Made by a program: the position numbers and the translations under genes
Notes under the pieces: model-generated
Databases searched by the model: none
Told to the model about the DNA's origin: nothing
What the model saw: only the letters and a program-made list of their open reading frames with translations
Source of the DNA: a virus
Lineage: Duplodnaviria > Caudoviricetes
Strand: one strand, 5' to 3'
Virus record (IMG/VR): IMGVR_UViG_3300036803_000058
Coordinates: 1-63,566 of that record
DNA length: 63,566 bases
Shown: positions 2,123-63,566 of the stretch, one piece after another
Layout: each line of letters starts with the position of its first letter
Position numbering within the stretch: the first letter of the stretch is position 1

Positions 2123-2134
2123 GGGCGGGTTACC

Positions 2135-2332
2135 CTATGGGTAAACGTGCGCCGGCTCGTCCTTGCCGCGCTCGCGCGGCATGGGCGGCGGGTAGGGCGT
2201 GGTGTGGTGGGTGGCGCGATGCTTCTCGAACGTCTCGGGGGTCGGTCGCGACGGATGGCGCGACGGGGTCTGCTCCTTGCCCCTATCGCTCTTATGCGGG
2301 GCGGTGTTCTGCGACGCCTGACGCTGTTCCAT
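2135..2332 (-). CDS. Hypothetical protein
   Basis: 65 aa; AAAGGAAG RBS before ATG 2332; stop lies within a palindrome. Confidence 0.45.
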   Translation of the reverse strand: MEQRQASQNTAPHKSDRGKEQTPSRHPSRPTPETFEKHRATHHTTPYPPPMPRERGKDEPAHVYP

Positions 2333-2345
2333 GGCTTGCTTCCTT

Positions 2346-2546
2346 TCACTTTTGACGGAGGACCCGACGAAGCTCTTCACGCTCGCCAGGATCTTCGATC
2401 GTTCGGAGGAATTCGCATTCAAGGCACAACTCCTGATCGTTGGCGGCCATCAGCACAAAGCGGGTGACTTCGATCCCGCAATCCTGGCACACGAAGACGT
2501 GGCCGTCCTCGGATGGCGGCGGGCACGGGAGGTCGGGCGGGATCAC
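2346..2546 (-). CDS. Small CxxC...CxxC zinc-finger protein
   Basis: CQDC and CLEC motifs; GTG start overlaps the upstream TAG. Confidence 0.5.
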   Translation of the reverse strand: MIPPDLPCPPPSEDGHVFVCQDCGIEVTRFVLMAANDQELCLECEFLRTIEDPGEREELRRVLRQK

Positions 2547-2929
2547 TACCAGCCCTCGGCCTGGCGGGTCTTGAGCATGAAGCCCATCAGCGGCCACAAC
2601 TGCCGGAAGGCGTTGTCGTAGGCGAGCTTCTTGCCGAGCTCGAAGTCGAAGTTGGCCGGCGAGACCGGCGTCGAGTGGCCGATCACCCGGAAGCCGTTCT
2701 TCATCACGATCATGCAGAGCGTGGTGAACGTCGCGTCGTGGCGCAGATCGTCGTAGTCGCGGCCGGCGGCCATCGAGCCATGGCCCATCAGGGCGTCGCC
2801 CGACTGGTAGAACGTGCCGGCGATCTCCCCTTCGATGTCAGCCACCGAGATGCGCTCGCCGCCACCTGCCTTGGCAGCGTTGGCCGCCGCCATCTCTTCA
2901 ACTTCCTTGGTCGTCAGCGGTCGTTCCAT
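2546..2929 (-). CDS. Phage N4 Gp49/Sf6 gp66 family protein (possible Acb4-type nucleotide sponge)
   Basis: Family signature TLCMIVMKNGFRVIGHSTPVSPANFDFELGKKLAYDNAFRQLWPLMGF. Confidence 0.8.
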   Translation of the reverse strand: MERPLTTKEVEEMAAANAAKAGGGERISVADIEGEIAGTFYQSGDALMGHGSMAAGRDYDDLRHDATFTTLCMIVMKNGFRVIGHSTPVSPANFDFELGKKLAYDNAFRQLWPLMGFMLKTRQAEGW

Positions 2930-2932
2930 GAA

Positions 2933-3112
2933 TTACCTCGTAGTGCTGGGAACATAGGGGGGAGGAGGCCAGTCGGGGTGCATGACGCGCGAATAGGCTG
3001 GGACGGGGCGACTGGAGTGGGAAGAGATCTGGACGTCGCGTGGGAACTGCCAGCGGGTCTCGATCAGCGCGCCGGTGGCGAGCGCGAAGGCGATGGGAAT
3101 GAGGAAGAACAT
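2933..3112 (-). CDS. Small protein with hydrophobic N-terminus
   Basis: MFFLIPIAFALATGALI; TGATG coupling to the DHH gene. Confidence 0.5.
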   Translation of the reverse strand: MFFLIPIAFALATGALIETRWQFPRDVQISSHSSRPVPAYSRVMHPDWPPPPYVPSTTR

Positions 3113-4056
3113 CACTCGTCGCCCTGCCAGTTGGGGAACGGCGCGGTGAAGCCGGCCGCGTTGTGGTGGCCGCCCCCGCCGTAGGTCTTGGCGATTGCGC
3201 TGACGTCGAGCCCGGGATCGTCGGCCTTCTTGTTGGAGCGCAGCGAGAACACCCGCTTGCCGTCGCCCATGTCGTAGTAGACCGCCGCGGCATGGGTGGT
3301 GTTGCCTGGTTCGCTGGCAAGGATATGGCCGATGTCGGAGGCCATGAAGTAGGGCGCGTTGACCGCCGGCATGCGCACCCCGCCAATCTTGATCATGCGA
3401 CGGCCGGAGACGGCCAGCTGCTGGCAGTTCTTCTTGTGGGCGCGGTCGATTGCGTGGCCCTGCGCCTGCATTGAGTTGTAGTTCGCGTCGTCCTCCATCT
3501 CCATCGCCAGACTCTCCCACACCATGAAGTCGAACGGGTGAGAGTAGAGGACAGCGCCGATCTCGCGCGTGCCGAGGATCTGGAACTTCCAGAGGTCGCG
3601 GTCCTCGACGTGGTTGATGATGCGCGGGCGCGGCTTGTGGCCGATCCCGTGAAAGCCGCCGTAGAAATAATCCCACGCCAGGCCGGCGCCCGAGCGCTCC
3701 ATGTCGAAGTGGGCGACGCAGCCCTCGACGGGGAGGGCGGGGGTGAGCTCGGGCCATGGCTGAGTCCACGGGCGGAGCGCGGCCTCGGCGGTCTTGTGGT
3801 GGTCGAGGATCAGCATCGCGTTGGCGTCGTTCTCCATCTGGCCGATCACCTCGGCGGGATAGCTGAAGTCGACCATGATGACGTTGCGGCCCAGCACGTC
3901 GGGCGGCGACTCGTTGTAGACGCCCTCGTGGAAGTCGCACAGCCCGTTGAGGAAGCGCCACACCACCCAGGCGCTGGTGAAACCGTCGACACAGCCCTTG
4001 TGCCAGATGCACAGCGGGACGTTGTGCGGGTTCTTGGTGCCGTTGGTTTCAGCCAT
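3112..4056 (-). CDS. DHH/DHHA1 phosphoesterase
   Basis: Motifs HKGCVDG, VDFS, LDHH, EDRDLW, FSLRS and GGGGHHNAAG; AAGGGG RBS before ATG 4056. Confidence 0.9.
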   Translation of the reverse strand: MAETNGTKNPHNVPLCIWHKGCVDGFTSAWVVWRFLNGLCDFHEGVYNESPPDVLGRNVIMVDFSYPAEVIGQMENDANAMLILDHHKTAEAALRPWTQPWPELTPALPVEGCVAHFDMERSGAGLAWDYFYGGFHGIGHKPRPRIINHVEDRDLWKFQILGTREIGAVLYSHPFDFMVWESLAMEMEDDANYNSMQAQGHAIDRAHKKNCQQLAVSGRRMIKIGGVRMPAVNAPYFMASDIGHILASEPGNTTHAAAVYYDMGDGKRVFSLRSNKKADDPGLDVSAIAKTYGGGGHHNAAGFTAPFPNWQGDE

Positions 4057-4073: not shown

Positions 4074-4487
4074 TTAGATTGCTTCGCTCAGCTGGCGTTC
4101 GAGCTCGGTTACCCTGAGGGTAAGTCCATCCCGCTCGTCCTTCAACTGGCGGATACGGGTGATTGAGGTTGCCAGGAGATCGTCGGCCTCCTTGAGGCGC
4201 TTCTGAAGGGAGACGAGCTCTTCCTCCTGCCGGGTGATCATGGCCTGCAGGAGCTTGATGTAGCGCGCGGCCCATTCGAGGCGGGTGCCGACGCCGAGGC
4301 GGCGCGGCGTCATCGGCACGCGCGATGGCAGGAGCGTGATCCTGGCGAAGCTCTCGAGCCAGTCGACGTGGTCCATGCGGGCCAGCATCTCGTCGTCGAT
4401 CGCCTTGGCGCGGAGCTCGGGCGAGGGGACGGGGATATGGGGGTCGAGCGGGGAGCGCTTGAAGAGGGAAGGACGTGGCTTCTTCAT
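4074..4487 (-). CDS. Hypothetical coiled-coil protein
   Basis: 137-aa ORF coupled to the upstream gene. Confidence 0.6.
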   Translation of the reverse strand: MKKPRPSLFKRSPLDPHIPVPSPELRAKAIDDEMLARMDHVDWLESFARITLLPSRVPMTPRRLGVGTRLEWAARYIKLLQAMITRQEEELVSLQKRLKEADDLLATSITRIRQLKDERDGLTLRVTELERQLSEAI

Positions 4488-6210: not shown

Positions 6211-6392
6211 GTAGGAAGTGTGGAAAAACGGTGACCCATATTTTTCAAGGGGCTAAGCACCGAGGGGGTCCCCCCACCCCTGTCCAGTACCGTTACCCGG
6301 TGGGTAACAGCTAGGCCGTTACCTACTGGGTAAAAGCCCAGACACTTAGCTATTAGTATGGGGCAATCCAGTCCCGCGAAAGGTAAAGTAAG

Positions 6393-7134: not shown

Positions 7135-7223
7135 GTGCGTCTGGGCTCTGGCCGTTACCCACTAGGTAACGCCCATCGCCCCCGCATTTGAGACAGTGAA
7201 CACAACGGACGCAGGTGAGGACG

Positions 7224-7830: not shown

Positions 7831-7860
7831 TTGACAATAGGGTTAAGTCATTGATATCAT
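7831..7860 (+). promoter_or_regulatory. Sigma70 promoter with extended -10
   Basis: TTGACA-N18-TATCAT preceded by TGn, in an AT-rich intergenic region. Confidence 0.6.
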
Positions 7861-7946
7861 TGGGCGATTAAATTAAAGTTCGTACTTCACTAGCACTTTC
7901 GGCGCCATAGTTATTACCCACTGGGTAAAATAAGGAGACAATGTAA

Positions 7947-8424: not shown

Positions 8425-8475
8425 TTGCAACGGACGTTACCTAGTGGGTAACATATCAAATAGGAGCAGAATATC

Positions 8476-8751: not shown

Positions 8752-8805
8752 TCCGACCCGTTACCCACCGGGTAACGACCACGCTTCTTGGGGACCATCA
8801 CCACT

Positions 8806-9490: not shown

Positions 9491-9994
9491 ATGACCGACA
9501 ACGACACCCTTCTCGGCTGGTTCGAGAACATCCTCGAACGCCTGCAACCGATGGCGCTCGCCATGATCAACGACGAGACCGAGCATGTGCCGATGTTCCT
9601 CGTCTACTCGTCCGATCGACCGCACAAGGTGGCGGCGATACCGCTGTTCGAGCTCAACAACGACGTCAAGGACGCGGCGTTCGGCGTGCTGCGCTCGCTC
9701 GGCAGCAGCGACGGCGTGCACGCCGCGATCCTCGTGACCGAGGCATGGACGGTCGAGCGCAGCACCGACGACCCCCGAGCCAGCGACATGACCAGATCGC
9801 TCGAGTTCGAGCCCGATCGGCAGGAGACTATGATCTGGAATTGCGTCAGTCACGGCCAGCAACTGATGGCGATGCGCAAGATCGACCGCACCACCAAGGG
9901 CTGGGGCGGTGAGCTCAAGATCATCGACCCGTCCAAGGACATGATGAGCGGCCGCATGGTGGCCGACGACAAGGATACGTCCACCAGGCACTAA
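9491..9994 (+). CDS. Hypothetical protein
   Basis: 167 aa; GAGGA RBS; genome-typical codon usage. Confidence 0.7.
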   Translation: MTDNDTLLGWFENILERLQPMALAMINDETEHVPMFLVYSSDRPHKVAAIPLFELNNDVKDAAFGVLRSLGSSDGVHAAILVTEAWTVERSTDDPRASDMTRSLEFEPDRQETMIWNCVSHGQQLMAMRKIDRTTKGWGGELKIIDPSKDMMSGRMVADDKDTSTRH

Positions 9995-10061
9995 CCAAGA
10001 CAGTGATCGCAACGTTACACCCATCCGTTACCCGGTGGGTAAAACAAGGAGATGTAGGCAA

Positions 10062-10370
10062 ATGAATATCATGGCAATGAACAGAACCAACGACGGCAGC
10101 CTTGCCGTCCACCGTATCGGCCGGCCGCAAGCCGGCATCCTCTACACGATCTGCTTCGATACGACCCGCTTAACGGACATCGCCAGCTACGAGGTGCTGT
10201 TCCCGATCCAGGCCAGGCATGGCGTCAGCGTTCTCAAGGACGGCAAGCGCGTGCTGCCGGGCACCAAGCACTACAAGCTAGCGCGCCTGCTGGTCGAGGC
10301 GTTCACTGCAGGCGAAGCGCTCGGCCTCGCCACCCATGTCATCGCCCCTTCCCGCAAGAAGGCGGCCTGA
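10062..10370 (+). CDS. Hypothetical protein
   Basis: AAGGAG RBS; bracketed by palindromes 10028 and 10374. Confidence 0.6.
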   Translation: MNIMAMNRTNDGSLAVHRIGRPQAGILYTICFDTTRLTDIASYEVLFPIQARHGVSVLKDGKRVLPGTKHYKLARLLVEAFTAGEALGLATHVIAPSRKKAA

Positions 10371-10447
10371 CCGTTACCCGGTGGGTAACAAGCGTAGCGT
10401 AAGCGTAGAGTACAGACTATAACTCAACTAGGAAGAGCGAGAACGAA

Positions 10448-11188
10448 ATGCTAAGACGTATGATGCTGATCGCGGCAGCCGCCGCGCTCATGGCAGTCAG
10501 CCTGCCGCTCGATGTAATGGCTAAGGGAGGCGGTGGTGGATCTGGCGGTGGCTCTGGCGGCAGTGGCGGTGGGTCTGGTGGTGGCGGCGCTGGTGGTGGG
10601 TCCGGTGGCGGATCGGGCGGTGGCGGCAGCGGCGGCGGCTCTGGTGGCGGCGGTGGTGGTTCGGGCGGTGGTGGAGGCGGTGGAGGTTCCGGTGGAGGCT
10701 CTGGTGGTTCTGGTGGCGGTGGGTCTGGTGGTGGCGGCGGTGGCTCGGGTGGCGGGTCCGGCGGCGGCTCTGGCGGTGGTGGCGGGTCTGGTGGCGCTGG
10801 CGGCGGGTCCGGTGGCGGCGGCGGATCCGGCGGTGGTTCAGGCGGGTCCGGTTCTGGTTCCGGCGGAGGCGGCGGCTCGGGCGCTGGCGGCGGTGGCGCT
10901 GGGTCTGGTGGCGGTGCTGGCGGCGGCAGCAGCGGCGGCAGTGGCGGTGGCGCTGGTGGTGGAGGCTCGGGGGGCGGGTCGTCCGGTGGTTCTGGCAGCA
11001 GCGGCGCTGGTGCTGGCAGCGGCGCTGGCTCTGCTTCTGGCAGCGCTTCTGCTGGCAATGGATCAACAGGCTCGAGCATCGACCCAGGCAACAACGACGT
11101 CGGCGCCTACTTCCGGCATCGTGACGCGCTTACACGCTATCGACTGAGCGTACCGTCCAACCAGCAGGGGCAGGCACGCCAGCCCTAA
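10448..11188 (+). CDS. Exported Gly/Ser-rich low-complexity protein
   Basis: Signal-peptide-like N-terminus, then about 180 residues of GGGS/GGA repeats, then a short unique C-terminus. Confidence 0.75.
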   Translation: MLRRMMLIAAAAALMAVSLPLDVMAKGGGGGSGGGSGGSGGGSGGGGAGGGSGGGSGGGGSGGGSGGGGGGSGGGGGGGGSGGGSGGSGGGGSGGGGGGSGGGSGGGSGGGGGSGGAGGGSGGGGGSGGGSGGSGSGSGGGGGSGAGGGGAGSGGGAGGGSSGGSGGGAGGGGSGGGSSGGSGSSGAGAGSGAGSASGSASAGNGSTGSSIDPGNNDVGAYFRHRDALTRYRLSVPSNQQGQARQP

Positions 11189-11390: not shown

Positions 11391-11486
11391 ATCCATTTTA
11401 TTCGGACAGTGGTTTGGCGTACTTACCCAGTGGGTAAGTCGAGCGTAAGCGTAGCGTATGATGTTAACATCAACTAGGAGCAAACT

Positions 11487-12057: not shown

Positions 12058-12089
12058 ACTCGCTCAACCCATTACCCACGGGGTAACTC

Positions 12090-12306: not shown

Positions 12307-12534
12307 ATGTATCCTCTGATTGACTTCCGCGAGCTCTACTACTGGATCGTGCTCGAGATCTACTACCAGCGCTACCTGACGCTGTGTCTCAAGTTTGAGG
12401 TGCCGCCGCGCGACCGCCGCGGCTTCGCCGATGCTGGCACCGAGGAGAACCCCAACTTCGCCCCGATGATCCGCGCCCAGCTTCTGAGCCGCTGGCCGGG
12501 CGAGAGCCTGTCGAGGGCCAGCCAATGGCACTGA
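12307..12534 (+). CDS. Hypothetical protein
   Basis: TAAGGAG RBS. Confidence 0.55.
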   Translation: MYPLIDFRELYYWIVLEIYYQRYLTLCLKFEVPPRDRRGFADAGTEENPNFAPMIRAQLLSRWPGESLSRASQWH

Positions 12535-12812
12535 ACCGAACCGTCACCGGCGCCATCATCGACATCACCCGCCTCGCCAACGGCGATCGCGACAAGGCGA
12601 CCCGTCAGCTGCAGAGCGTCTGCTTCGTTGCGGCGTGGGCCGGCATGATAACAGCCGAGGACCGCGACCGGGTCTTCGAGCTCTGGCTCAAGTACGGCAA
12701 GTACAACCTGCCGGCCACCTGCCGGCACACCCTGCGCCGGGTGATCCGCGACCTGATCGAGGAAGGTCAGGCGATGAAGCTGCAGGCAAAACCCTTGTTA
12801 CCCACCGGGTAA
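12525..12812 (+). CDS. Hypothetical protein
   Basis: Stop codon is the TAA of palindrome 12798. Confidence 0.55.
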   Translation: MALNRTVTGAIIDITRLANGDRDKATRQLQSVCFVAAWAGMITAEDRDRVFELWLKYGKYNLPATCRHTLRRVIRDLIEEGQAMKLQAKPLLPTG

Positions 12813-12841: not shown

Positions 12842-13363
12842 ATGCATAAGAAACGGTGTATATTTGGGTTCGTCATGGTCCTGTCATGCGTCTTATCTGT
12901 CCCTCCCCCATCAGGGGCCGCCGATCTCTCGGGTACGATCCGGGTGGTCGACGGCGACTCGCTGGTGGTGGGTGGCGAGCGCGTCCGCCTCGAAGGCATC
13001 GACGCGCCCGAGATGGGCCAGACATGCGAACGGTTAAAGCTCACGTACGATTGTGGTCAGGAGGCGCGCGACCTCATGGTGATGCTGGTGAGCGACGGCT
13101 CGGTCCACTGCCGCGTCAACGAACGCGACATTTACCAACGATGGTTGGGACAGTGTTTTGGTCGCGACCCGATTACCGGCGAGGCGACCAACCTCAACCT
13201 GCAGATGGTCGGGCGCGGCTATGCCGTGGTCTACCACGGCAGGAACCACGGCACGCCCGAGCTCCTGCAGGCCGAGCGTGACGCACGCGAGGCCAGGCGT
13301 GGCATCTGGGCTGGCCGCTTCGACTATCCCTGGGACTGGCGCCGGAACCATCCGCACCACTGA
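12842..13363 (+). CDS. Thermonuclease (SNase-like) with signal peptide
   Basis: VVDGDSL, RVRLEGIDAPE, DIYQR, NLQMVGRGYA and ARRGIWAG motifs. Confidence 0.9.
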   Translation: MHKKRCIFGFVMVLSCVLSVPPPSGAADLSGTIRVVDGDSLVVGGERVRLEGIDAPEMGQTCERLKLTYDCGQEARDLMVMLVSDGSVHCRVNERDIYQRWLGQCFGRDPITGEATNLNLQMVGRGYAVVYHGRNHGTPELLQAERDAREARRGIWAGRFDYPWDWRRNHPHH

Positions 13364-13377
13364 GAAGGTGTTACCCA

Positions 13378-13665
13378 ATGGGTAAATGCACATTCGTCGA
13401 CGGCGACGACCCCGACCTCGAGACCAAGTATCCGTGGCTCAAGCGCGTGCCACCCGAGTGGCAGGCCTATCACCTGATGCGGGCGCGCCAGTGGAAGCAT
13501 CAGATCAAGCTGATCCGCGAGCAGGCCCGGTTCGAGGCCGCGATCGAGGATTTCATCGCACAACTGGAACAACAACGGCGCGACCGGCGACGGCGCGCAC
13601 TTTTGTCAGGCACGGCTTTTGCTCTCTTGGCCGTGCTTGTCATGTGGGCAGGGAGCGTAATCTAG
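13378..13665 (+). CDS. Hypothetical protein with C-terminal TM segment
   Basis: ATG lies within palindrome 13371. Confidence 0.55.
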   Translation: MGKCTFVDGDDPDLETKYPWLKRVPPEWQAYHLMRARQWKHQIKLIREQARFEAAIEDFIAQLEQQRRDRRRRALLSGTAFALLAVLVMWAGSVI

Positions 13666-14315: not shown

Positions 14316-14338
14316 GTTACCCTGTGGGTAATCAGCCC

Positions 14339-14366
14339 TTGACACAATAAGGGCATAGTGTATAAT
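14339..14366 (+). promoter_or_regulatory. Consensus sigma70 promoter
   Basis: TTGACA-N16-TATAAT, 7 nt downstream of palindrome 14317. Confidence 0.8.
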
Positions 14367-14398: not shown

Positions 14399-15148
14399 AT
14401 GTCGACACAACCACCGGCACCGGGCGACAACAGCGCCAACGCCTACAAGCTATTCCTCGACCAGATGCGCGAGCTTGGGCGCGTCAAGGGTCGCGGCGCC
14501 AACGCCCAGATCGAGGCAGCCGTGCAGTGCGTCGAGCGCGCCAGCGAGGGCATCATCGACGTCAAGAACACCGAGGAAGTATACGATGCCTTCTTGGGCG
14601 GCGAGACTCAGGCCGGCGGCGCCACCGGCACGGCCAACGAGGAGAAATCTGACCGGACAGTGCGCATCAGCGAGCTCCGCCAATTCGTCAAGATGGGCGG
14701 CATCAAGACGATCGACCCGGTGGCTTTGATCCACAACGCCGTGACGTGGATCAGGAACGCCAAGCAGGTCGAGAAGCTGGGTAAAGGCGTCAAGGTCTAT
14801 TCGGCGATGGTCGACGTGGCGCGCGCCCAGAACAAGATCCCCGAGCATGCGCTCACCGAGGACGAGTGCATCGCCGCGGCGCAGCCCAAGGCCGGCCGCG
14901 ACAAGGACGAGGCCGACTACTGGGGTCAGGTGCGCGACCGGATCGACAAGATCGAGAAGAAGTTCGGCACCAGCGACGAGATCACCAGGATACGCGATCA
15001 GGTCCAGCTGGTGATCGACGATCTGGGCGGCACCAGTGCCGACCGCAAGAAGGCCGAGAAAGCGGCGAAGGAACTGGCCAAGCTGCAGGGCAAGACCCCG
15101 GCAGCCGCGCCAGCGCCGGCCGGCAAGAAGGGCAAGGGGAAGAAGTAG
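14399..15148 (+). CDS. Hypothetical Lys/Ala-rich protein (probable paralog of 6393-7088)
   Basis: 249 aa behind the strong promoter; palindrome right after the stop. Confidence 0.8.
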   Translation: MSTQPPAPGDNSANAYKLFLDQMRELGRVKGRGANAQIEAAVQCVERASEGIIDVKNTEEVYDAFLGGETQAGGATGTANEEKSDRTVRISELRQFVKMGGIKTIDPVALIHNAVTWIRNAKQVEKLGKGVKVYSAMVDVARAQNKIPEHALTEDECIAAAQPKAGRDKDEADYWGQVRDRIDKIEKKFGTSDEITRIRDQVQLVIDDLGGTSADRKKAEKAAKELAKLQGKTPAAAPAPAGKKGKGKK

Positions 15149-15206
15149 TTACCCACCGGGTAACGTGAACTGCTGAGGGGCAGGTCCAACAGAGAGCGAG
15201 GGCAAT

Positions 15207-15681: not shown

Positions 15682-15942
15682 ATGCGTACGTTCCTGTTCA
15701 TCGTGGCTCTCTGCATCTTTGCTTTCTGGGTGGTGCCGTGGCTGAAGTTGCGCAAGGTGGCCCGGTGGGCTGCCTTGCACGAACACATCCGCCCCAAGCG
15801 TATCCTGCTGTACGGGCCGGATGCCTGTGCTGACGTCGCCATCGCCGGCATGAAGGCGATCATCTGGCTCAGCAAGCTGGCGCACCGTCATCCCGTTATG
15901 ATGGCCGCCAACGTCAACGATCCGAAAGGCTACCGCTCATGA
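15682..15942 (+). CDS. Hypothetical membrane-anchored protein
   Basis: GGGAG RBS; N-terminal TM segment. Confidence 0.5.
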   Translation: MRTFLFIVALCIFAFWVVPWLKLRKVARWAALHEHIRPKRILLYGPDACADVAIAGMKAIIWLSKLAHRHPVMMAANVNDPKGYRS

Positions 15943-16196
15943 TCACCAAGATCTTCACGCCGCTGCAGGTGGTCCATCTGTGGGGCCACCAGTTCGGCCC
16001 CTGGCGTAGTCCCTTCACGGTCGGCGACGAACATATGCCGATGCCGATGCATCCGTTCACCTGCCCCAACCGGGGCGATCATCCAGAGCTCGCCGGTGAC
16101 AAGGGCGTGCTCGTGCCGACGGTCCGCGGCTGGATATGTCCGTTCTGCGACTACACGCAGGACTGGGCACACGACTTCATGATGGGCCACCGCTAG
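15939..16196 (+). CDS. Small Zn-binding hypothetical protein
   Basis: HPFTCPNRGDH...GWICPFCDYTQDWAH. Confidence 0.6.
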   Translation: MITKIFTPLQVVHLWGHQFGPWRSPFTVGDEHMPMPMHPFTCPNRGDHPELAGDKGVLVPTVRGWICPFCDYTQDWAHDFMMGHR

Positions 16197-16246
16197 TTTT
16201 ACCCAGTGGGTAAAGGAGAAGTTACATGTCAAATGGAGACACATAG

Positions 16247-16724: not shown

Positions 16725-16901
16725 ATGACGGAACAGGAGATCGAGACCGCCGTCCAGCAAGCGCAGGCGGCCATCGAAGAGCTCTGCTTGCCCGGCAAGA
16801 TGACGCCTGCCGAAGCCAAGGACTTTCTCGAGCGGGTGATCGAGCAGTGCCAGTCCTCGGTCGAGGCGCTGATCGAGGAGAACGAAGACCTCGAGGCCTG
16901 A
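16725..16901 (+). CDS. Small acidic protein
   Basis: AAGGAG RBS; starts MTEQEIETAV. Confidence 0.55.
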   Translation: MTEQEIETAVQQAQAAIEELCLPGKMTPAEAKDFLERVIEQCQSSVEALIEENEDLEA

Positions 16902-16908
16902 TTACCCG

Positions 16909-17154
16909 GTGGGTAAATCGGCCAATGGCAATCCGAACCTCGCAGCTATCCGCCGCACGGTGCGAGAGTTGGGCGGTACGATCACGGCGAGGGATGCGGG
17001 CGGCCGCACCCTTCGCCTCACCATCAAGACCAAACAGGGTGCAGTGTTCACGTACGGCGTAATCCGCCGCAAGGTGGACGACATGAAGCTGGCCGGTTGG
17101 CTCCGGCAGGAGTTCAACCGGGCCAACGCCGCGCACAAGAGGAGGAAGAAGTAA
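16909..17154 (+). CDS. Small basic protein
   Basis: GTG start within palindrome 16902. Confidence 0.5.
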   Translation: MGKSANGNPNLAAIRRTVRELGGTITARDAGGRTLRLTIKTKQGAVFTYGVIRRKVDDMKLAGWLRQEFNRANAAHKRRKK

Positions 17155-17445: not shown

Positions 17446-17489
17446 TTCGGACAGTGACAGCGTTACCTCCTGGGTAAAATGAGGACACG

Positions 17490-19521: not shown

Positions 19522-19564
19522 TGTGTATAATAGGAATATTACCCACCGGGTAACAGGAGGACCC

Positions 19565-23069: not shown

Positions 23070-23117
23070 GGAGATTACCCACTGGGTAACTGGAGAACAC
23101 TGAAGGGGTTCGTCGAC

Positions 23118-24866: not shown

Positions 24867-24883
24867 ACCCATAGGGTAACAGG

Positions 24884-50348: not shown

Positions 50349-50364
50349 CTTACCCTCTGGGTAA

Positions 50365-50619
50365 TTACTTGCCGCGCTTGCGTCGCACCGCCGCTTCGAT
50401 CTCTTCTTCGGTCGGCGGCGGCAATGGGGCGACCGGCACCACCGGCTTGGCGATCTCATAGTTGCGGCCGAGCGCCCGGATCTCCTCCATGCGTACCTCG
50501 TCCTCATCGCGATCGGCCTGCTGCTTGCGCGCCCATGCTTCCTTCTGGCGCACGGTATCGGCAGCCCGTGCCTCGGTGATCTTGCGTCCCAGTTCGATCT
50601 CGGCTCGTGTGTTGCCCAT
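50365..50619 (-). CDS. Hypothetical protein
   Basis: TAGGAG RBS. Confidence 0.55.
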   Translation of the reverse strand: MGNTRAEIELGRKITEARAADTVRQKEAWARKQQADRDEDEVRMEEIRALGRNYEIAKPVVPVAPLPPPTEEEIEAAVRRKRGK

Positions 50620-52655: not shown

Positions 52656-53660
52656 CTAACCCTGCGGCTGCTGCGGCTGCTCAGGCGCTGGCTGAGGTTG
52701 GTCGCCCGTCGTCTCGACATGATCAGCGTGCTCGACATTGTCGGCGTGCTCGACGTTCTCGGCGTGATGGCCGCGATGCCGGTGCCGACGCTTGTGGTGC
52801 TCGGGATGATCCGGGTGGTCGGGGTGGTTCGGATCATGCGAGTGATCCTGCTCGTCGTGCTGCTGGTCGCCCGTCTGTCCGTAGGACGGGTCGTGGGTCA
52901 CCCGCCGCGGCTCGTTACCCTCGTGGGTAACCTTCGCCTGGCGCTCCTTGGCTTCCTTAGTGCGCTTCTCGTCGAGCTTCGCCTTAGCCGCCTCCGATGG
53001 GATCTTGATCGGCAGGCCGGTGTCCGGGTCGGTCAGGGGATCGACCGGCGGGTCGTCGCCGTACTCCTCGTAGATCTGCTCAGGCGTCATGTAGCGGAGC
53101 TCGAGCCAGCGCCCCACCTCGAGCGCCTTGGCCATGACCTCCTCGTCGATCACGTCCTCGGCGCGTGGCATCGCCTCGACCTCGTCGTCGGGATGGTTGC
53201 CCGGCGCCACGGCATGGTCCGGGGCCGGCGTCCCGCCGTAGATCGGTCCGTCCGTGGTGGGCGATGCCGTCCGGCGAGCAGGCGGCGGCGCCTCGGGTGC
53301 TTCCGGGAGCGCCCAGTAGTCGGCCGGGTAGTAGCGCTGCATGTAGCGCAGCCCAACCGCGGTCGCCTCGTCGTCGTCCATATGCTGGAACTCAGGCTTC
53401 GGATGGGGCACCTCGCCATCCTTCTCCGTCGGCACCGCGCTGTCGAACGGCTTGGGCAACAGCCGGCCGTGGTGCTCGTTGACCTGCGCCTGCGCCTTGG
53501 CGGCGCTGTCGGGCGTGTTGTCGCCCGGCCGGCGCGCGCCGGGATCGAGCGTGCGATGGGCCTCGGCCTGGGCTTCGGTCGTGTCGGGCTGACGGCCGGC
53601 CATGCCGGTCGTCTCGGGTCCGCCGGTGTTGGTGGCGGTCGGCAGTGGGTCGGTCATCAC
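52656..53660 (-). CDS. Acidic, His-rich, probably disordered protein
   Basis: 334 aa; AAGGAG RBS. Confidence 0.6.
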   Translation of the reverse strand: MMTDPLPTATNTGGPETTGMAGRQPDTTEAQAEAHRTLDPGARRPGDNTPDSAAKAQAQVNEHHGRLLPKPFDSAVPTEKDGEVPHPKPEFQHMDDDEATAVGLRYMQRYYPADYWALPEAPEAPPPARRTASPTTDGPIYGGTPAPDHAVAPGNHPDDEVEAMPRAEDVIDEEVMAKALEVGRWLELRYMTPEQIYEEYGDDPPVDPLTDPDTGLPIKIPSEAAKAKLDEKRTKEAKERQAKVTHEGNEPRRVTHDPSYGQTGDQQHDEQDHSHDPNHPDHPDHPEHHKRRHRHRGHHAENVEHADNVEHADHVETTGDQPQPAPEQPQQPQG

Positions 53661-53893: not shown

Positions 53894-54948
53894 GGTCCCA
53901 ACTCGCGAACGACCATCCACGACTTGATGTTCGGATTGTTCTGGGACGTCGCACCATCGTTCGTCTGTCCCTGCCGCCACGTCTGGGCGCTGTTGCCACC
54001 CAGTCGAAAGTTGAGCGTCATGGCTGCAGTGCCAGGCGAGGGCATCACTGTTTTGAACGGCAACGTCTGCTGGATCACGTTGCCTGCCCCGATGTAACAC
54101 TGCTGACAATCGACGTAGGTTGATCCATTGAACAGCGCCAGCGTCCAACATTCCGTCGCGTTCCCGTTGCCCTTGAACGTCCCCTCGACCTCGATCTTGC
54201 TGGTGGCGCTCATCGGCGTGAAGTTGATGCTGTCGAGCGCCGCTCCCTGCGAAATGAGGAACGGCGTCAACTGACCGGAGTTGAACGTCCCTATGATGTT
54301 GCCGGTCACCAAGCTCTGCTTGACGGCCGTCTGCAGCACCACGTTGCCGAGGCCCGGTGGACCTTGCACGCCCGGTGGACCTTGCGCGCCGACACCGACC
54401 TCGGTAATCGACATCGTGGCCTGAAGCGCACCGCCATAAAAGCGACCACTGTCGTTACGGTTAATATACGCCGCCGAGCCGCCGCCGTAGCGCAGTTCAA
54501 AAGTGTGCGTCCCCGCTGCGAGCACGCCACGCCAACGAATGCGCAGTGGCACCAGAGCCTGTGCAACATTGACGTTCATCGCCTTGGCCGCAACCGCATC
54601 CGGCGCGTTGTCGATGAACAGACAGAGCCCGTAGTTGACACCCGCACCGCCGGTGCCTGTGACGATCTCAGCGTCCACGTCGATAGGATTACCGGCGTTC
54701 TGTGCCGTGAACACGCGCTGGAAGACGCGCGCACCTTCGCTGATCTGCGGGATCGTATCGTCGAAAGGAATGACACCAACAGCGGGGAACGTCGCGTTGG
54801 TCATGTCGAAAGTCGGCGCAGCCGTCGGCAGGAGCGCCGCAGGCGAGTAGACCTTCCAGATCGACCCCGTCCAGATGTACGCCACGCCGTTGGGCGCGTT
54901 GAACACCTGATTGGCGGCCGGTGCGTTGGGGAAGTCGATGGCGGCCAT
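53890..54948 (-). CDS. Fibre/decoration protein with short collagen stretch
   Basis: IDFPNAP...YIWTG module, GXY triplets, beta-rich C-terminal domain. Confidence 0.7.
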   Translation of the reverse strand: MAAIDFPNAPAANQVFNAPNGVAYIWTGSIWKVYSPAALLPTAAPTFDMTNATFPAVGVIPFDDTIPQISEGARVFQRVFTAQNAGNPIDVDAEIVTGTGGAGVNYGLCLFIDNAPDAVAAKAMNVNVAQALVPLRIRWRGVLAAGTHTFELRYGGGSAAYINRNDSGRFYGGALQATMSITEVGVGAQGPPGVQGPPGLGNVVLQTAVKQSLVTGNIIGTFNSGQLTPFLISQGAALDSINFTPMSATSKIEVEGTFKGNGNATECWTLALFNGSTYVDCQQCYIGAGNVIQQTLPFKTVMPSPGTAAMTLNFRLGGNSAQTWRQGQTNDGATSQNNPNIKSWMVVRELGP

Positions 54949-56297
54949 CAAGCGTACTCCCTGACAGTCATCCACGAGCGCAGGTTCGGGTTCGCCGAAA
55001 AGCCCGCGCCAGTGTTGGTCATGCCCTGCGGCCAGCCGTTACCGCTGTTGGCCCCGACCCGGAAGTTGAAAGTGATCGCCGCCGTGCCGGGCGACGGCAT
55101 GACGGCCCGCAAATGGGCGTTCGCCACGGCTCCGACTACAGACACTCCCTGAAGCTGTACCTGATCGAGGAAGGTCGTGCCGTTGAACAGGGCGATGGAA
55201 AAGACATCGGTACCAGCAGCCGACTTAAAATCAGCGTCGATCACCAGCGTGCTGGCCGCGCTCTTGGGCGTGAAGGTGAGGTTGTCGAGCGCCGCGCCAC
55301 CTGTCGCCAGAGGTGTCGTCACCACCGATGACGAATAGGTGCCCGTCACGACGGCGCGGACGGTGCACTCCTTCTCGACGTGCTGCAGCACCATGCCGCT
55401 CACGGCTGGAGCCGCTGGGACCCACTGCTGCGAAGTGCCGTCGTCGTACCAGAGGTACATGACGCCGTCGTCGGACTTCCACCACATCTGCCCGACAGCG
55501 GGTGATGCAGGCGGCGCAGTGCCGATGAAGATGTTCGCGCCGGCGGGACCCTGGGGACCCGTGGCTCCCGTCGCACCGACGGGACCTTGCGCACCCGTGT
55601 CGCCCTTGACGCCCTGCGGACCTTGAGCGCCGGTGTTACCGACAGGACCCTGCGGACCTTGGGCACCCGTGTTGCCAATTGGACCCTGCGGGCCCGTCGC
55701 GCCCGTGTTGCCAATCGGACCCTGTGGGCCAGGGCTGCCCTGCGCACCGGTGTCGCCCTTCGCACCCTGTGGGCCGATCGGGCCAACCGGGCCCTGTGCG
55801 CCGGTGTCGCCCTTCGCCCCCTGGGGACCGGGATCGCCCTGCTCACCCTGCGCGCCTTGCGGACCGGGGAAGCCCTGAATGCCTTGCGGGCCAGGATCGC
55901 CCTGCTCACCTTGCACACCCTGCGGGCCGAGATCGCCGGTTTGGCCGGGCGGGCCTTCCTCGCGGCCGATGCCAGGATTGCACACGACCCACTGCTTCGT
56001 GTTGCCGTCGTCGTACCAGATGAACAGGAAACCGCGCGCCGTGTCGTACCAGAGATCGTTGTCGGCCGGGTTACCCGGTGGGTAAGGCGAACTGGTGAGC
56101 GTCGGCGTCGAGGTCACCACGGTGGGCGACGGCGCCTGAAGACGCCGATGGCTACCCTGCAGCGACACCACGCGCGCCGCGCGCTGGACCCAGGCCCCGT
56201 GCCCGTTGGCATTCACCAACCAGTCGAACGTGAGCCCGGTCCGCGGGTCGTGCCAGCTGTCGCCCGGCTTCGGCGTCGACGTCGGCGCAGTGCTCAT
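54948..56297 (-). CDS. Collagen-repeat fibre protein
   Basis: About 46 GXY triplets flanked by two LW..D..WYDDG..QWV modules. Confidence 0.85.
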
Positions 56298-56314: not shown

Positions 56315-56353
56315 AGACGGCCAGTTACCCACCGGGTAACCGGCCGCCTGTCT
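56315..56353 (-). terminator. Hairpin after the capsid gene with the palindrome at its apex
   Basis: CGGCC-A-GTTACCC-ACC-GGGTAAC-C-GGCCG. Confidence 0.45.
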
Positions 56354-56364: not shown

Positions 56365-57486
56365 TTACGGGATCACCGCTTCGGTCACGATCGCTTCGGC
56401 GACCGCCTTGCCGTCGATCACCTTGTAGCCGAACACCTGCAGGCCGCGGAGCAGCGTGCCGAAGGTGAACTCCGACCGCAGCGTCTCGACCTTGCTGATC
56501 TGCGAGGCGAAGGTGAGGCCGTGCGCATGGCCCGCGAAGAACACCCACTCGCCCGCCGCCAGACCCGCCGGCACGCCGTTGGGCAGGAGGTTGGAGACGT
56601 ACAGGGTGAAGCGGTCGATCATGCCGAGCTTGCCGTTGCGCAGCGGCGAGACGCTGTCGCCGGTCACGTACGCCTGGCGGAGCTCCGACTCCTTGATCAT
56701 CGTCGCGGCCCACGCCGGGATGATGACCCACCGCCCCTGCTCGGGGATGTTCTGCTCGTCGAGCGCCTGGCCCAGCCGCAGGATGACCTGCAGCACGGTG
56801 ATCTGGCCGGCCACCGGCGGGTTCGCCTGATTGGCGACCATCGGGACCGGCGTGCCGGTGACACCCAGATTGATGTTGGCCGAGATCTTGCCGGCGGTCA
56901 GGCCGCGGTTGGCAGGATCGGCCTGATGAAGGATGCCCAGCATGACGATGGTGTCGACCTGGATCTTCATCTGCTGCGCGGCGTCGTCGGACCAGATGCC
57001 CATCATGTTGATGTCGCTCTGGATCTCCATCACGTCGTCGAGGATTTCGTTGAAGTACAGACCCTGGTCGATCGTGAGGTCGACGATGTTGGAGCCCGGC
57101 CGCTCGACCGCGAGGTTGCCGCCCGACAGGTACGGCTTGATGGTGATGGTCGGCTTGGTGCGGATATGGACCCGGTCGCCCTGGTTCCTGATCTCGCCTT
57201 CGTAGTCGGTGTTGCTGATCACCGCGAGCACGGTCGAGGCGTAGAACTTCTCGATCAGCTTGCCCGACCAGATCTCCGGGATGAACGTGCCCGAGTACGG
57301 CGGCGAGGGCTGCACCGAACCCGTCGGGAAGATCGGCGGGGTGGTGCCGCTGGTCGCGAGACCGTAGGCGAACGCGGTGTTGATCGAGAGCTCACCCGGG
57401 TTCGGGATCAGGCCGGGATCGAGCTCGGGGAGCTCAGCGACGGCCGCGCTCAGCTGAACTTTGGGAACGAAGGGACGAAGGCGCAT
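56365..57486 (-). CDS. Major capsid protein
   Basis: FIPEIWSGKL, NTDYEGEI..GDRVHI, LDEQNIP..GRW and RGLQVFGYKV motifs. Confidence 0.9.
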   Translation of the reverse strand: MRLRPFVPKVQLSAAVAELPELDPGLIPNPGELSINTAFAYGLATSGTTPPIFPTGSVQPSPPYSGTFIPEIWSGKLIEKFYASTVLAVISNTDYEGEIRNQGDRVHIRTKPTITIKPYLSGGNLAVERPGSNIVDLTIDQGLYFNEILDDVMEIQSDINMMGIWSDDAAQQMKIQVDTIVMLGILHQADPANRGLTAGKISANINLGVTGTPVPMVANQANPPVAGQITVLQVILRLGQALDEQNIPEQGRWVIIPAWAATMIKESELRQAYVTGDSVSPLRNGKLGMIDRFTLYVSNLLPNGVPAGLAAGEWVFFAGHAHGLTFASQISKVETLRSEFTFGTLLRGLQVFGYKVIDGKAVAEAIVTEAVIP

Positions 57487-58622: not shown

Positions 58623-58865
58623 CTATGTCCTCCGTTTGAGCTCTTCCCTCAACTTGATGCAGTCGTCGAGCTTCTTAAAAAGCTGTCCGGCCAGCTGGCA
58701 TTTACCCTGCTGGGTAAAAACCATGTCCTTGTCGGCGGCCACCAAGTCGGCTCTGAGCCGTTCCTCGAGATCTCCGAGCGCCCTCATCATGGCGTTGTAC
58801 TGCGGCATCGCCGCGATCTTGAGCTCCGCTGCCGCCAGCACGATCGCCGAGTAGGGGTCGCTCAC
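58623..58865 (-). CDS. Hypothetical protein
   Basis: 80 aa in the head module. Confidence 0.55.
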   Translation of the reverse strand: MSDPYSAIVLAAAELKIAAMPQYNAMMRALGDLEERLRADLVAADKDMVFTQQGKCQLAGQLFKKLDDCIKLREELKRRT

Positions 58866-61945: not shown

Positions 61946-61982
61946 AGCCGCGGATACTATGCCTAGAGGACAGGATCGCACA

Positions 61983-62477
61983 ATGCCCGACCAGAACCTC
62001 CGCACCGTCGTCACCGAGATCACGATCAGCCGGCTCGCCCGCGACATCGCCCGCGACATTGTCCCCGTGACGGACATCCTGAAGACCCACCACCTCTCGG
62101 TGCAGCAGTACGAAGGCATCCTCAACACCAAGATCTTCCAGACCAGGCTCGAGGAAGAGGTCTCGTCGTGGGCGTCGAATGGTCGGGAAAGGATCGCCGC
62201 CAAGGCGATGGCGATCGTCGAGGAGGGGTTGCTGGAGCTCTTCGATCTGATCCACGACCGCGCCCAGCCGATGACCGCCAAGATCGAGGCGTTGAAGTTC
62301 ACCGCCAAGCTCGCCGCCATGGAGAACGGCGCGACCGAGCTCGACCCTGACGACAAGATCGTGTTCAACATCACGATCAACGGCCAGCGCAAGACGTTCG
62401 AGGATCGCGCGGCCGATCCGGCTGAAGCGGCCAAGGTGATCGACGGCGAAGTTACCCAGCTGGGTAACACCCCGTGA
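61983..62477 (+). CDS. Putative terminase small subunit
   Basis: 164-aa helical protein upstream of terL; C-terminal IVFNITING...VIDGE. Confidence 0.5.
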   Translation: MPDQNLRTVVTEITISRLARDIARDIVPVTDILKTHHLSVQQYEGILNTKIFQTRLEEEVSSWASNGRERIAAKAMAIVEEGLLELFDLIHDRAQPMTAKIEALKFTAKLAAMENGATELDPDDKIVFNITINGQRKTFEDRAADPAEAAKVIDGEVTQLGNTP

Positions 62478-62680
62478 CCGTCATCCCCTTCCCGGTGCCC
62501 GAGCAGTTCAAGGGCAACGGCGCGCGCGAGGCGCTCGAGCGTGTGCTCGATACCGAGTGCGAGATCCACCCGCCCGATCCCGAGAAGGACTACGCGCTCA
62601 CCCTGCCCGATCGGCTGCTCGCGCTCCTGTGGGTCGAGGGCTACAAGATCGTCCCGCTCGAAGACGGCGACGTGCCCTGA
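62474..62680 (+). CDS. Hypothetical protein
   Basis: Coupled at both ends. Confidence 0.55.
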   Translation: MTVIPFPVPEQFKGNGAREALERVLDTECEIHPPDPEKDYALTLPDRLLALLWVEGYKIVPLEDGDVP

Positions 62681-63566
62681 TGGAGATCAACTTCGAGGCG
62701 GGCCCGACGTCCAGCGCGTTCATGGACTCCGACGCCTTCTTCCGATTGTTGGCGGGACCGGTGGGTTCGGGCAAGACCACGACCTGTCTGATGGAGCTCA
62801 TGCGGCGCGCCTTCGAGCAGCGCCGCTCGATGCAGGATGGATTGCGCAAAACCCGCTTCGCAATCTGCCGGCAGACCTTGAGCCAGCTCAAAAACACGGT
62901 CCTCAAGGACATCGTGACGTGGTTCCAGCCGATTGCGCAGTGGAAGGTTTCGGAGAGCACGATCTACTTCAACTTCAAGGACGTTAGGAGCGAATGGCTC
63001 CTGCTGCCGCTGGAGACGCCCGAGGATCAGCGCCGCATCCTGTCGTTGCAGCTGACCGGCGCGATGCTCTCCGAGGCGATCGAGACCGACGTCGATCTCC
63101 TGGGCCCGATCGCCGGCCGCTGTGGCCGTTACCCACCGGGTAAGGAGGGTGGACCCAGCTGGCACGGCATGATCGGCGACACCAACTTCCCGGCCGAAGG
63201 CTCGCCGTGGCACCAGATCATGGAGAGCCCGCCGGTCGACTATCAGGTCTTCAAGCAGCCGGGCGGCCTATCGCCCGGCGCCGAGAACCTGAACTACCTG
63301 CTGCAAACGCCCGAGACGATCGTCCTGCCGTACGACCATCCCCTGCGCCTGGCGCGCGGCCAGCTCTACTACGAGCGCCTGGCGCGCTCGACCAATCCCG
63401 ACTGGGTGAAGCGCTACGTTCACGCCGAGTACGCGCCGGATCCCTCGGGCGCCGCGGTGTTCCGTGGCATGTTCATCCCGCGCTTCCATGTGGTCGACGC
63501 GATCGAGCCGATCCCCGGCGCGCCGCTGATCGTCGGCATGGACTTCGGTCGCGACCCGGTGTGCGT
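62680..63566 (+). CDS. terL: Terminase large subunit, N-terminal ATPase part (continues into 1-677)
   Basis: Manual translation MEINFEAGPTSSAFMDSDAFFRLLAGPVGSGKTT...SLQLTGAMLSEA...DTN. Confidence 0.92.
   Translation, partial: MEINFEAGPTSSAFMDSDAFFRLLAGPVGSGKTTTCLMELMRRAFEQRRSMQDGLRKTRFAICRQTLSQLKNTVLKDIVTWFQPIAQWKVSESTIYFNFKDVRSEWLLLPLETPEDQRRILSLQLTGAMLSEAIETDVDLLGPIAGRCGRYPPGKEGGPSWHGMIGDTNFPAEGSPWHQIMESPPVDYQVFKQPGGLSPGAENLNYLLQTPETIVLPYDHPLRLARGQLYYERLARSTNPDWVKRYVHAEYAPDPSGAAVFRGMFIPRFHVVDAIEPIPGAPLIVGMDFGRDPVC

Follow-up and report, generated by a model that had tools for sequence, protein, structure and literature searches.

A genome-wide array of TTACCC-N3/4-GGGTAA palindromes in an uncultured podophage-like genome, with lineage-specific half-sites in its relatives

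The window analysed in this work is the whole 63,566-bp virus record IMGVR_UViG_3300036803_000058 (GC content 64.5%, terminal repeat of 127 bp), and its subject is the palindrome TTACCC-N3/4-GGGTAA, which is repeated along the entire genome. The genome is complete and uncultured and, judging from PHROG and Pfam matches, podophage-like. A self-trained codon-usage caller, whose calls for the cultured phage RHph_TM27A, judged by eye, reproduce most of the GenBank coordinates, gave 83 genes, lying on the plus strand from about 6.4 to 34.9 kb and mostly on the minus strand elsewhere. By PHROG and Pfam these include structural genes (portal, capsid, internal virion protein, tail fibre and a virion-type open reading frame (ORF) of 2475 amino acids) and replication genes (family A DNA polymerase, SNF2-type helicase, PD-(D/E)XK exonuclease and DUF927 primase-helicase); a MoxR-like ATPase with a DUF2201 partner is also encoded. 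The 2475-amino acid ORF, at 36194-43621 on the minus strand, has no Pfam or PDB sequence match and only an unnamed PHROG. The closest cultured relatives are the Rhizobium phages RHph_TM27A/B, TM29 and TM3_14A, with amino-acid identities of 55% for the portal and 64% for the capsid, and megablast with 20 kb of the window found nothing among cultured phages. IMG/VR contains at least 589 confirmed capsid relatives, and DNA of the window was found in soil metagenomes only (DNA runs; no RNA run was listed). A search of the literature, supplementary files aside, returned no report of the TTACCC palindrome or of the RHph_TM27A group.

The window holds 37 exact copies of TTACCC-N3/4-GGGTAA, referred to below as perfect sites, against none in 100 dinucleotide-preserving shuffles, and no copy of the backwards control pattern. 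A preliminary description of this DNA had placed 37 perfect copies and judged them far beyond chance, and both statements were borne out; it had counted five copies with one mismatch, and we count six (at 6319, 7155, 8437, 17463, 42387 and 46806), 37 of the 43 sites with at most one mismatch being perfect. As palindromes the sites have no strand, and ORFs on the minus strand are marked (-) below. The spacer has three nucleotides (N3) in 29 perfect sites and four (N4) in eight. Outside the palindromes the hexamers are scarce, with TTACCC occurring three times and GGGTAA eight times where about 12 of each are expected from base composition, and the unit is therefore the pair of arms. The half-site reaches beyond six bases: TTACCCAC is present on one strand at 23 of the 37 sites, where chance would give about 11%, which agrees with the spacer bias noted earlier. 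A G is found at -1 in 23 of the 37 sites and a C at +1 in 19 of them, and the half-site takes the form (G)TTACCC(A). Within the window the half-sites are nearly uniform, TTACCC accounting for 79 of the 84 in TTAC...GTAA sites.

Spacing of the sites along the genome is mildly regular. The coefficient of variation of the gaps is 0.79 in the window against 0.97-0.99 in the nulls (p 0.06), and it fell below the null mean in seven of seven genomes (0.69-0.87 against about 0.97, with p 0.005-0.3 each), the mean spacing being 1.3-1.7 kb. The word lattice, used in the preliminary description, is thus too strong for what is present.

With respect to genes, 24 of the 37 perfect sites lie between genes or at most five codons from a gene end, in sequence that makes up 13.8% of the genome (binomial p 1e-12), and the remaining 13 lie deep in genes. 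This placement is in line with the earlier statement that most sites come after stop codons, before ribosome-binding sites or near promoters. Two sites accompany promoter-like sequences: that at 7914-7928 (spacer ACT) stands 53 nucleotides past an 11/12 sigma-70-like promoter (7831-7860) and 18 nucleotides before the ATG at 7947, and the one at 14317-14331 (TGT) ends seven nucleotides before the -35 element of a 12/12 sigma-70-like promoter (14339-14366). The site at 19539-19553 (ACC) lies just past a TATAAT, with the ATG at 19565 another 11 nucleotides on. The non-coding gap that separates the divergent gene blocks contains the site at 6293-6307 (GGT), followed 12 nucleotides later by a one-mismatch site with a TTACCT arm (6319-6333).

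Several sites touch or supply stop and start codons, as had been described for four of them. The site at 2130-2144 (TAT) overlaps the stop of ORF 2135-2332(-), seven nucleotides before the ATG of 989-2122(-), and the TAA of the site at 12798-12812 (ACC) is the stop of 12525-12812. The spacer of the site at 13371-13385 (AAT) holds the ATG at 13378, the called start of 13378-13665, and that of the site at 16902-16916 (GGT), placed directly 3' of the TGA stop of 16725-16901, holds the GTG at 16909, again a called start. Other copies follow stops closely: at 10374-10388 (GGT) three nucleotides after the stop of 10062-10370, at 15149-15163 (ACC) directly 3' of the TAG stop of 14399-15148, at 16199-16213 (AGT) two nucleotides past the stop of 15939-16196 and followed by AGGAG, and at 23912-23926 (ACT) one nucleotide past the stop of 23533-23910 and followed by a separate GC-rich hairpin. 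The site at 50350-50364 (TCT) separates the TAA with which 50365-50619(-) ends from the ATG that opens 48591-50348(-). Starts are closely preceded by the sites at 12072-12086 (ACG; ATG 12090 three nucleotides on), 24865-24879 (ATA; four nucleotides upstream of the ATG of the DNA polymerase gene, 24884-26761) and 28486-28500 (CGT; in the last codons of 28190-28507, with the helicase ATG at 28504 three nucleotides on), and the one-mismatch site at 17463-17477 (TTACCT arm) is upstream of the ATG at 17490.

The other copies outside or at the edge of genes are those at 8761-8775 (ACC; intergenic), 10028-10042 (GGT; between 9491-9994 and 10062-10370, then AAGGAG), 11423-11437 (AGT; intergenic, 11 nucleotides past a GACAGTG box), 23075-23089 (ACT; intergenic, upstream of 23118-23381), 35814-35828 (CGT; between 35829-36032(-) and 35625-35801(-)), 56325-56339 (ACC; between the capsid gene 56365-57486(-) and 54948-56297(-)) and 62452-62467 (N4, AGCT; last codons of 61983-62477(+)), together with the one-mismatch copy at 8437-8451 (TTACCT arm), 13 nucleotides past a GACAGTG box. 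Separate terminators adjoin or surround some sites, as at 23912 and 26912. The latter (26912-26926, CTT), just past the DNA polymerase gene, is located within the loop of a larger, GC-rich hairpin that resembles a terminator and runs into a stretch of T (26890-26950), so the palindrome can be nested in an ordinary terminator.

The GACAGTG heptamer, as an observation in its own right, is found at five plus-strand gene boundaries (7192, 8417, 9999, 11405 and 17450), four of these copies being 6-22 nucleotides upstream of a palindrome or a degenerate copy of it, and three of them sharing GACAGTGA-N3/4-CAACG. In the window as a whole it is not enriched (12 copies against 8.9 expected). The boundary copies may be a directional promoter or RNA element.

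Deep in genes, N3 copies are found in 4074-4487(-) (4109-4123, TGA, translated LTLRVT), in the 2475-amino acid ORF (37843-37857, TGC), in the tail-fibre-like gene 54948-56297(-) (56071-56085, GGT) and in the large terminase ORF 62680-63564(+) (63129-63143, ACC). N4 copies lie deep in the MoxR-like ATPase gene 17490-18590 (18186-18201, AGAC, LPRRVT), where a copy with one mismatch occupies the corresponding position in the related contig G001, in the DUF2201 gene 21073-22539 (21713-21728, AGCC, VTQPGK), in 30418-31875 (31337-31352, AGCC, VTQPGN), in the primase-helicase gene 31930-34914 (32798-32813, ACGG, VTHGGN), in the 2475-amino acid ORF (42168-42183, ACCG) and in 52656-53657(-) (52915-52930, TCGT). 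The 2475-amino acid ORF also contains the one-mismatch N4 site at 42387-42402 (GTGTAA arm). Further copies inside ORFs are at 20808-20822 (AGA; seven codons inside 20786-21007), 44684-44698 (TCG; codons 6-10 of 43626-44714(-)), 58702-58717 (N4, TGCT; in 58623-58865(-)) and, with one mismatch in a CTACCC arm, 46806-46820 (in 44714-47050(-)).

The spacer length depends on where a site lies, N4 being present in 7 of the 13 deep sites but in a single one of the 24 at junctions (Fisher p 0.0011). The register xTT ACC CNN NNG GGT AAx, shared by seven of the eight N4 copies, translates as V/F-T-x-x-G-K/N, avoids stops as well as TTA and GTA, both of them rare here (14 and 34 of 19,098 codons), and leaves two codons free. 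The reading frames thus explain why N4 is almost confined to genes, and the function accordingly tolerates N4 and prefers N3 where coding does not interfere.

Across seven genomes, 21-43% of the sites lie within -12 to +30 nucleotides of a called start, where about 5% are expected, and 29-51% are deep in genes. In the window the distance from site to start runs from -8 to +30, and 12 of the 42 TTAC...GTAA sites are deep intragenic; the register to the start is variable (-8, +1 to +7, +11 to +30). Most junction sites of the window are followed by a separate AGGAG-type Shine-Dalgarno sequence. In the relatives G007, RHph_TM27A, G002 and G003, the 3' arm itself, (GG)AGGTAA or GGGTAA, is the only Shine-Dalgarno-like element, 1-7 nucleotides before many ATGs. 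The variant arm TAACCC is sense-oriented in 29 cases against 3, often as the upstream stop codon, and the AC extension into the spacer is on the sense strand at 13 sites and on the antisense strand at 9-10 (hand count).

The array was typed in 14 whole or large genomes, the window and RHph_TM27A included. Conservation of the motif in related phages, which the preliminary description had proposed to look for, was found: the array is kept in G001-G003, and variants of it are present in nine further genomes. A scan of IMG/VR with the 17-letter form returned 78 stretches, mostly with single matches. Related contigs have many perfect TTACCC-type copies (22 in G001, 26 in G002, 21 in G003, and two in a fourth contig), and G001-G003 are syntenic with the window at protein identities of 30-80%. 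In RHph_TM27A there is no TTACCC palindrome, and GTTACC-N5/6-GGTAAC is present 18 times, 12 of these being TTACCT-N4-AGGTAA, among 34 TTACC-N5/6-GGTAA sites overall; the genomes of the cultured RHph_TM27A group have 34-47 sites each. TTAC...GTAA sites number 18-49 per genome across RHph_TM27A and the other relatives.

Throughout these genomes the outer TTAC...GTAA is constant, and positions 5-6 of the half-site vary by lineage with both arms changing together. Named by the last three letters of the six-base arm, the type is CCC in the window and G001-G003, CCT in RHph_TM27A and G007 (49 sites), with G005 mixed, CTT in G011 (45 sites), CCG in G009, G012 and G013, CGG in G010, and CAG in G008. 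The length of the centre tracks the end of the arm, since arms ending in C or G have 3-nucleotide centres and those ending in T have 4-nucleotide centres. A single spacing accounts for 84-100% of the sites in G007 (47/49), G009 (21/21), G012 (17/18), G013 (22/23), G010 (21/24) and G011 (38/45); spacing is mixed in the CCC clade and in RHph_TM27A, with the inner length split 23:25 in G001.

In bacteria the motif was at chance level. Five bacterial genomes of 1.9-7.8 Mb, selected for having one match, carried one copy each, the level of the control pattern, so that motif density in the phage is thousands of times theirs; the preliminary description had named absence from host genomes as a check. 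In a scan of genome contigs, which gave at least 120 matches, those listed were single scattered copies in unrelated taxa.

Comparison of related genomes indicates what is selected. At 11 sites shared by G003 and G002, 3 of 132 arm positions have changed against 12 of 38 spacer positions and 252 of 1386 flanking positions; purifying selection on the arms is strong, whereas the spacers vary freely. The copies conserved between G002 and G003 include deep intragenic ones. At larger distances the position of a copy is not always kept, as the site in the ATPase gene is at codon 232 in the window but at about codons 83 and 275 in G002 and G003. In a soil-metagenome variant of the window, the degenerate site at 7155-7169 (AGGTAA arm) is replaced, by way of three coordinated changes, by its exact reverse complement, a flip seen among 40 of 557 differences in a contig-based comparison. 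Spacers can therefore flip between strains, which accounts for the lack of orientation bias.

Some findings speak against a function that rests on pairing alone. Within a genome, positions 5-6 are one sequence and not any complementary pair, and compensated pairs are not enriched: TTACTC pairs were found once in G001 and not at all in G002 (about 2.6 and 1.9 expected), and TAACCC pairs twice in G002 and twice in G003 (about 1.9 and 5.8 expected), the expectations being our own arithmetic for independent decay of the half-sites. Flanks show independent base preferences with little covariation, since among the 187 family sites whose arms are 6 bp long, the bases at offset 1 were complementary in 71 cases against 61.8 expected (p 0.07), with a marginal result at offset 2 (59 against 48.7, p 0.046) and chance level at offsets 3-4. 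In 370 family sites, G-U against A-C mismatches on the sense strand were 49:26 at inner pair 1 and 33:34 at inner pair 2 (82:60 in total), and transition-type, wobble-compatible mismatches outnumbered the others 75:18 at inner pair 1. Asymmetry between strands and in wobble is weak, and the G-U to A-C ratios, like the two-strand distribution of the AC extension, the deep sites and the variable register, speak against a sense-strand RNA. Predicted hairpin energies are -5.9 to -10.2 kcal/mol as RNA and -3.9 to -6.1 kcal/mol as DNA. No Rfam family matched.

We tentatively propose, as the best of the readings considered, that a symmetric, rapidly evolving phage protein recognises these putative docking sites by their sequence in duplex DNA. 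Palindromic operators usually have invariant arms around a free centre, and by this analogy the pattern would support recognition of the duplex. Because positions 5-6 are invariant within a genome and rapidly changed between close relatives, a specificity borne by the phage fits better than a box for a host protein. We infer that the reader is a protein acting on double-stranded DNA and that it is phage-encoded. Such a reader would be symmetric and probably dimeric, its specificity drifting between lineages, and the phage would maintain about 40 sites, placed at gene junctions where coding constraint is weakest, with further copies written into long genes in the codon-friendliest register. Binding may block or time transcription irrespective of orientation, with the greatest density over the early genes, or alternatively it may mark or compact the phage chromosome. 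As the word contains TAA and a run of G, junction copies would have been co-opted secondarily as stop, Shine-Dalgarno and start context.

A dimer on double-stranded DNA had already been favoured in the preliminary description. A sequence-specific reader at the DNA level is still the best reading, but the argument then drawn from the occurrence of both orientations is weak, because the stem is identical on both strands and the spacers flip between strains, and readings based on hairpins are still viable because of the mixture of N3 and N4 and the use of the 3' arm as Shine-Dalgarno sequence in relatives. The role then envisaged, that of organising, silencing, protecting or translocating the chromosome, is not demonstrated by any result of this analysis.

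Several observations weigh against duplex recognition by a phage protein. N3 and N4 spacers coexist with perfect arms (29:8), which is unusual for a rigid dimer; the 3' arm serving as Shine-Dalgarno sequence in relatives and the share of sites near starts fit a role in RNA equally well, and the G-U excess at inner pair 1 on the sense strand also speaks for RNA. Sites resembling sigma-70 promoters in the 14 genomes had the motif nearby in 12 of 53 cases, at scattered distances and with no fixed geometry. Neither 59 Pfam queries, covering 58 of the 83 genes (the 25 others being mostly structural), nor 20 PHROG queries revealed a family of the helix-turn-helix, ParB, repressor, sigma or polymerase kind, which agrees with the earlier report that no repressor, ParB or RNA polymerase is recognisable. 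Finally, G006 (loci L302-L305), a complete relative of 63,673 bp, has no enriched palindrome of any kind and nevertheless keeps every widely conserved gene family.

Among those families is the product of 14399-15148(+), a protein of 249 amino acids that we regard as a weak candidate for the reader. It is the sole widely conserved early protein without a recognised family, is encoded in 13 of the 14 genomes, and is predicted to be all-helical (pLDDT 79) with a Lys-rich tail; sites flank its gene in the window, G001 and G007, and its homologue in RHph_TM27A is EVB29_028. The residual of its likeness between genomes was +4.7 points in six pairs of the same motif type against -1.0 in the rest, the largest of 12 families, in a comparison where the pairs are few and not independent and the pairwise identities (16-37%) are near saturation. 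Its model had no Foldseek match at E<=0.001, the best VIA Z being 6.6, to unrelated helical proteins; weak sigma-factor rows appeared at E about 1, and a scan of viral contigs confirmed 0 of 323 candidate stretches. An identification as the phiC31 repressor c (an Atlas lead of 0.80) was rejected, since PF25746 matched none of nine homologues and the hhalign probability was 0.2%. With regard to an ORF that co-occurs with the motif, a check also proposed earlier, the 249-amino acid protein is no more than a lead; blastp clustering, which misses fast-evolving small proteins, found no widely conserved family missing only from G006.

An RNA hairpin at gene junctions would account for many of the same facts, though we consider it unlikely. 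A stem of 6-7 bp holding or abutting the Shine-Dalgarno sequence or start would control expression gene by gene, its user being a phage translational repressor, an endoribonuclease or translational coupling; RegA and RegB of phage T4 are the analogy. The 24 of 37 sites at junctions, the 21-43% of sites near starts where about 5% are expected, the 3' arm placed 1-7 nucleotides before the ATG with no other Shine-Dalgarno sequence in G007, RHph_TM27A, G002 and G003, and the sense bias of TAACCC, often an upstream stop (29 against 3), are all consistent with it, as are the equal suitability of N3 and N4 as loops, the predicted RNA stability and the 49:26 ratio at inner pair 1. However, 29-51% of the sites are located, and conserved, far inside genes, their register relative to the start varies, a separate AGGAG-type Shine-Dalgarno sequence follows most junction sites in the window, and sites are present in the divergent non-coding region too. 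The stem is invariant and the loop free, the reverse of most recognition of RNA hairpins by proteins; the arms show no compensation, inner pair 2 is balanced (33:34), spacers flip freely, and Rfam offers no family.

Rather improbable, in our view, is a signal formed as a hairpin in single-stranded DNA of either strand and read by a replication protein when the duplex unwinds. It could be a priming or loading signal for the primase-helicase (31930-34914), for which the ssi signals of plasmids are the analogue, or a hairpin promoter of the N4 type. The first option, in which the palindromes would be ssi-like priming or loading sites all over the genome, spaced roughly as Okazaki fragments, with either strand lagging, and co-evolving with the replication protein, is by itself more doubtful still. 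Strand symmetry, tolerance of N3 and N4, and the free loop all fit a hairpin in single-stranded DNA, as do the 75:18 wobble-compatible mismatches at inner pair 1, the mean spacing of 1.3-1.7 kb with gap variation below the null in seven of seven genomes, the copies written into long genes and the predicted stability as DNA. But the regularity is weak (p 0.005-0.3 per genome), and the primase neither tracks the motif type (same-type residual -0.8 points) nor is missing from the array-less G006. The arms are invariant in sequence beyond mere pairing, the 2475-amino acid protein has no detectable similarity to a polymerase, and N4 hairpin promoters are few and one-directional.

We find it quite improbable that the palindrome is a binding box of a host protein copied many times by the phage, with lineage differences reflecting different hosts. 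In its favour, the search for a phage regulator found none, phages of 45-65% GC share the outer TTAC...GTAA, and TTACCCAC is a sequence that we take to resemble a DnaA box with one change. On the other side, the five bacterial genomes are at control-pattern level with one copy each, the genome-contig matches listed are single scattered copies in unrelated taxa, and positions 5-6 are fixed within a genome yet change rapidly between close relatives. A recombination linker or small mobile palindrome of the PeSL, REP or MITE type, which spreads or mediates gene shuffling, is hardly tenable: 11 of 36 ends of G003-G002 homology blocks lie at most 25 nucleotides from a site (2.15 expected), a site is flipped in the variant strain, and deletions between repeats were observed in Cluster O (PMC4351075), but block ends fall at 7 of 18 junctions with a site against 6 of 25 without (p 0.33), the breakpoint excess being due to the location of sites at gene junctions, the in-frame 16-nucleotide copies within conserved domains cannot be insertions, the flanks are not conserved and no transposase was found.

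The system had been called undescribed, which is too strong, as a 7-N3-7 palindrome with the same layout is present in more than 30 copies per genome in Cluster O mycobacteriophages. Their 17-bp repeat, TGTTCGG-N3-CCGAACA, with 34 copies in Corndog, occurs between genes, near gene 5' ends and deep in genes, without clear orientation to transcription; it is kept throughout the cluster and not present in host genomes, few copies are near promoters, and the authors proposed a dimeric DNA-binding protein and left its role open (PMC4351075). The window is alike in its invariant arms, variable centre, lack of orientation bias, junction and deep sites, persistence in relatives and chance level in five bacterial genomes. 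It differs in its sequence and in belonging to unrelated phages, those of Cluster O being siphoviruses of Actinobacteria; the spacer is reported as fixed at three there (Corndog), whereas 8 of 37 sites are N4 here, and the present array has lineage-specific half-sites around a constant TTAC...GTAA in a very large uncultured family, its 3' arm often doubling as Shine-Dalgarno sequence.

An 18-bp inverted repeat lies upstream of starts in Microbacterium Cluster EG phages (PMC7302621). This repeat and the SAS/ESAS elements (Clusters K and EF) resemble the present sites as conserved short motifs in short intergenic gaps before starts, retained in relatives whose surrounding DNA has diverged; they have 8-19 copies at a set distance (14-22 nucleotides or the ribosome-binding site), mostly in one direction. 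Unlike SAS, the 37 copies of the window, of which 13 lie far inside genes, keep no fixed register and show no sense specificity.

Among better-known systems, the stoperators of Cluster A are asymmetric and oriented with transcription, and they and the CIR of phiC31 belong to temperate phages with a known repressor. They resemble the array as many dispersed, genome-wide sites for one phage protein, and the stoperators differ from it in that the sites of the window are palindromic and without orientation bias and that the 59 Pfam queries revealed no repressor family. The hairpin promoters of the N4 virion RNA polymerase, with a stem of 5-7 bp and a 3-nucleotide loop, equal the window palindromes in stem and loop size; they are few, in one orientation and upstream of early genes, in contrast to 37 symmetric, genome-wide copies with 13 inside genes. 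The matS sites of MatP, the parS sites of ParB and the KorB operators are dispersed short palindromes that dock one dimeric protein. Site density in the window is much higher and spacer length variable, and no homologue of MatP, ParB or KorB was found by Pfam among the 58 of 83 called genes that were scanned, the 25 genes outside the scan being mostly structural. REP, MITE and PeSL elements differ from the palindromes of the window, which have in-frame intragenic copies and non-conserved flanks.

Some neighbouring features deserve mention. The MoxR-like ATPase gene (17490-18590) and the gene of the DUF2201 metallopeptidase/VWA protein (21073-22539) are conserved in 13 of 14 and 14 of 14 relatives, respectively; the label MoxR-like comes from the RHph_TM27A record only, the product in the window having no Pfam match. 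The ORF at 30418-31875 encodes a conserved 485-amino acid protein with a Cys-rich N-terminal domain of about 250 amino acids, followed by a long Pro/Ala/Gln-rich tail with an acidic-hydrophobic tip; it has no Pfam match and looks like a phage single-strand DNA-binding protein. In the RHph_TM27A record (MN988461.1, 42248-45331), the homologue of the DUF927 primase-helicase is annotated as a putative integrase, with a 14-bp attL/attR marked, and given its domain content it is more likely a replication protein than an integrase. The ORF of an HNH_3 endonuclease at 20053-20529, which looks like a mobile homing endonuclease, is missing in a variant strain: in a contig from a soil metagenome, 18 different letters link 20049 with 20565. 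At the Gly/Ser-rich ORF region 10536-11147, three soil metagenomes show a contig depth 10-30 times that of neighbouring stretches, and odd joints are many; this excess is an artefact of low-complexity cross-mapping, not biology. ARAGORN reported a tRNA-Asp (anticodon atc) at 26115-26191, within the DNA polymerase gene, which is probably spurious. A staphylococcal-nuclease homologue is found in the early region (12944-13363), and on the minus strand a Gp49/66-family protein (2546-2929) is encoded next to a DHH/DHHA1 phosphoesterase (3112-4056).

Genome-wide palindrome arrays have been reported in a few actinophage clusters since 2015, Cluster O included (PMC4351075). What is new here is the presence of the array as a family trait in a very large, uncultured group of podophages, with at least 589 capsid relatives and the array checked in 14 genomes. 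The stepwise change of the half-site around the constant TTAC...GTAA provides natural variants of specificity, and the array-less G006 is a natural control; mixed spacer lengths add to the picture, and the cultured Rhizobium relatives make bench tests directly possible. Should the sites prove to be read by a new protein that marks or times the DNA, or to have a role in replication, the array would represent a general feature of phage genome biology.

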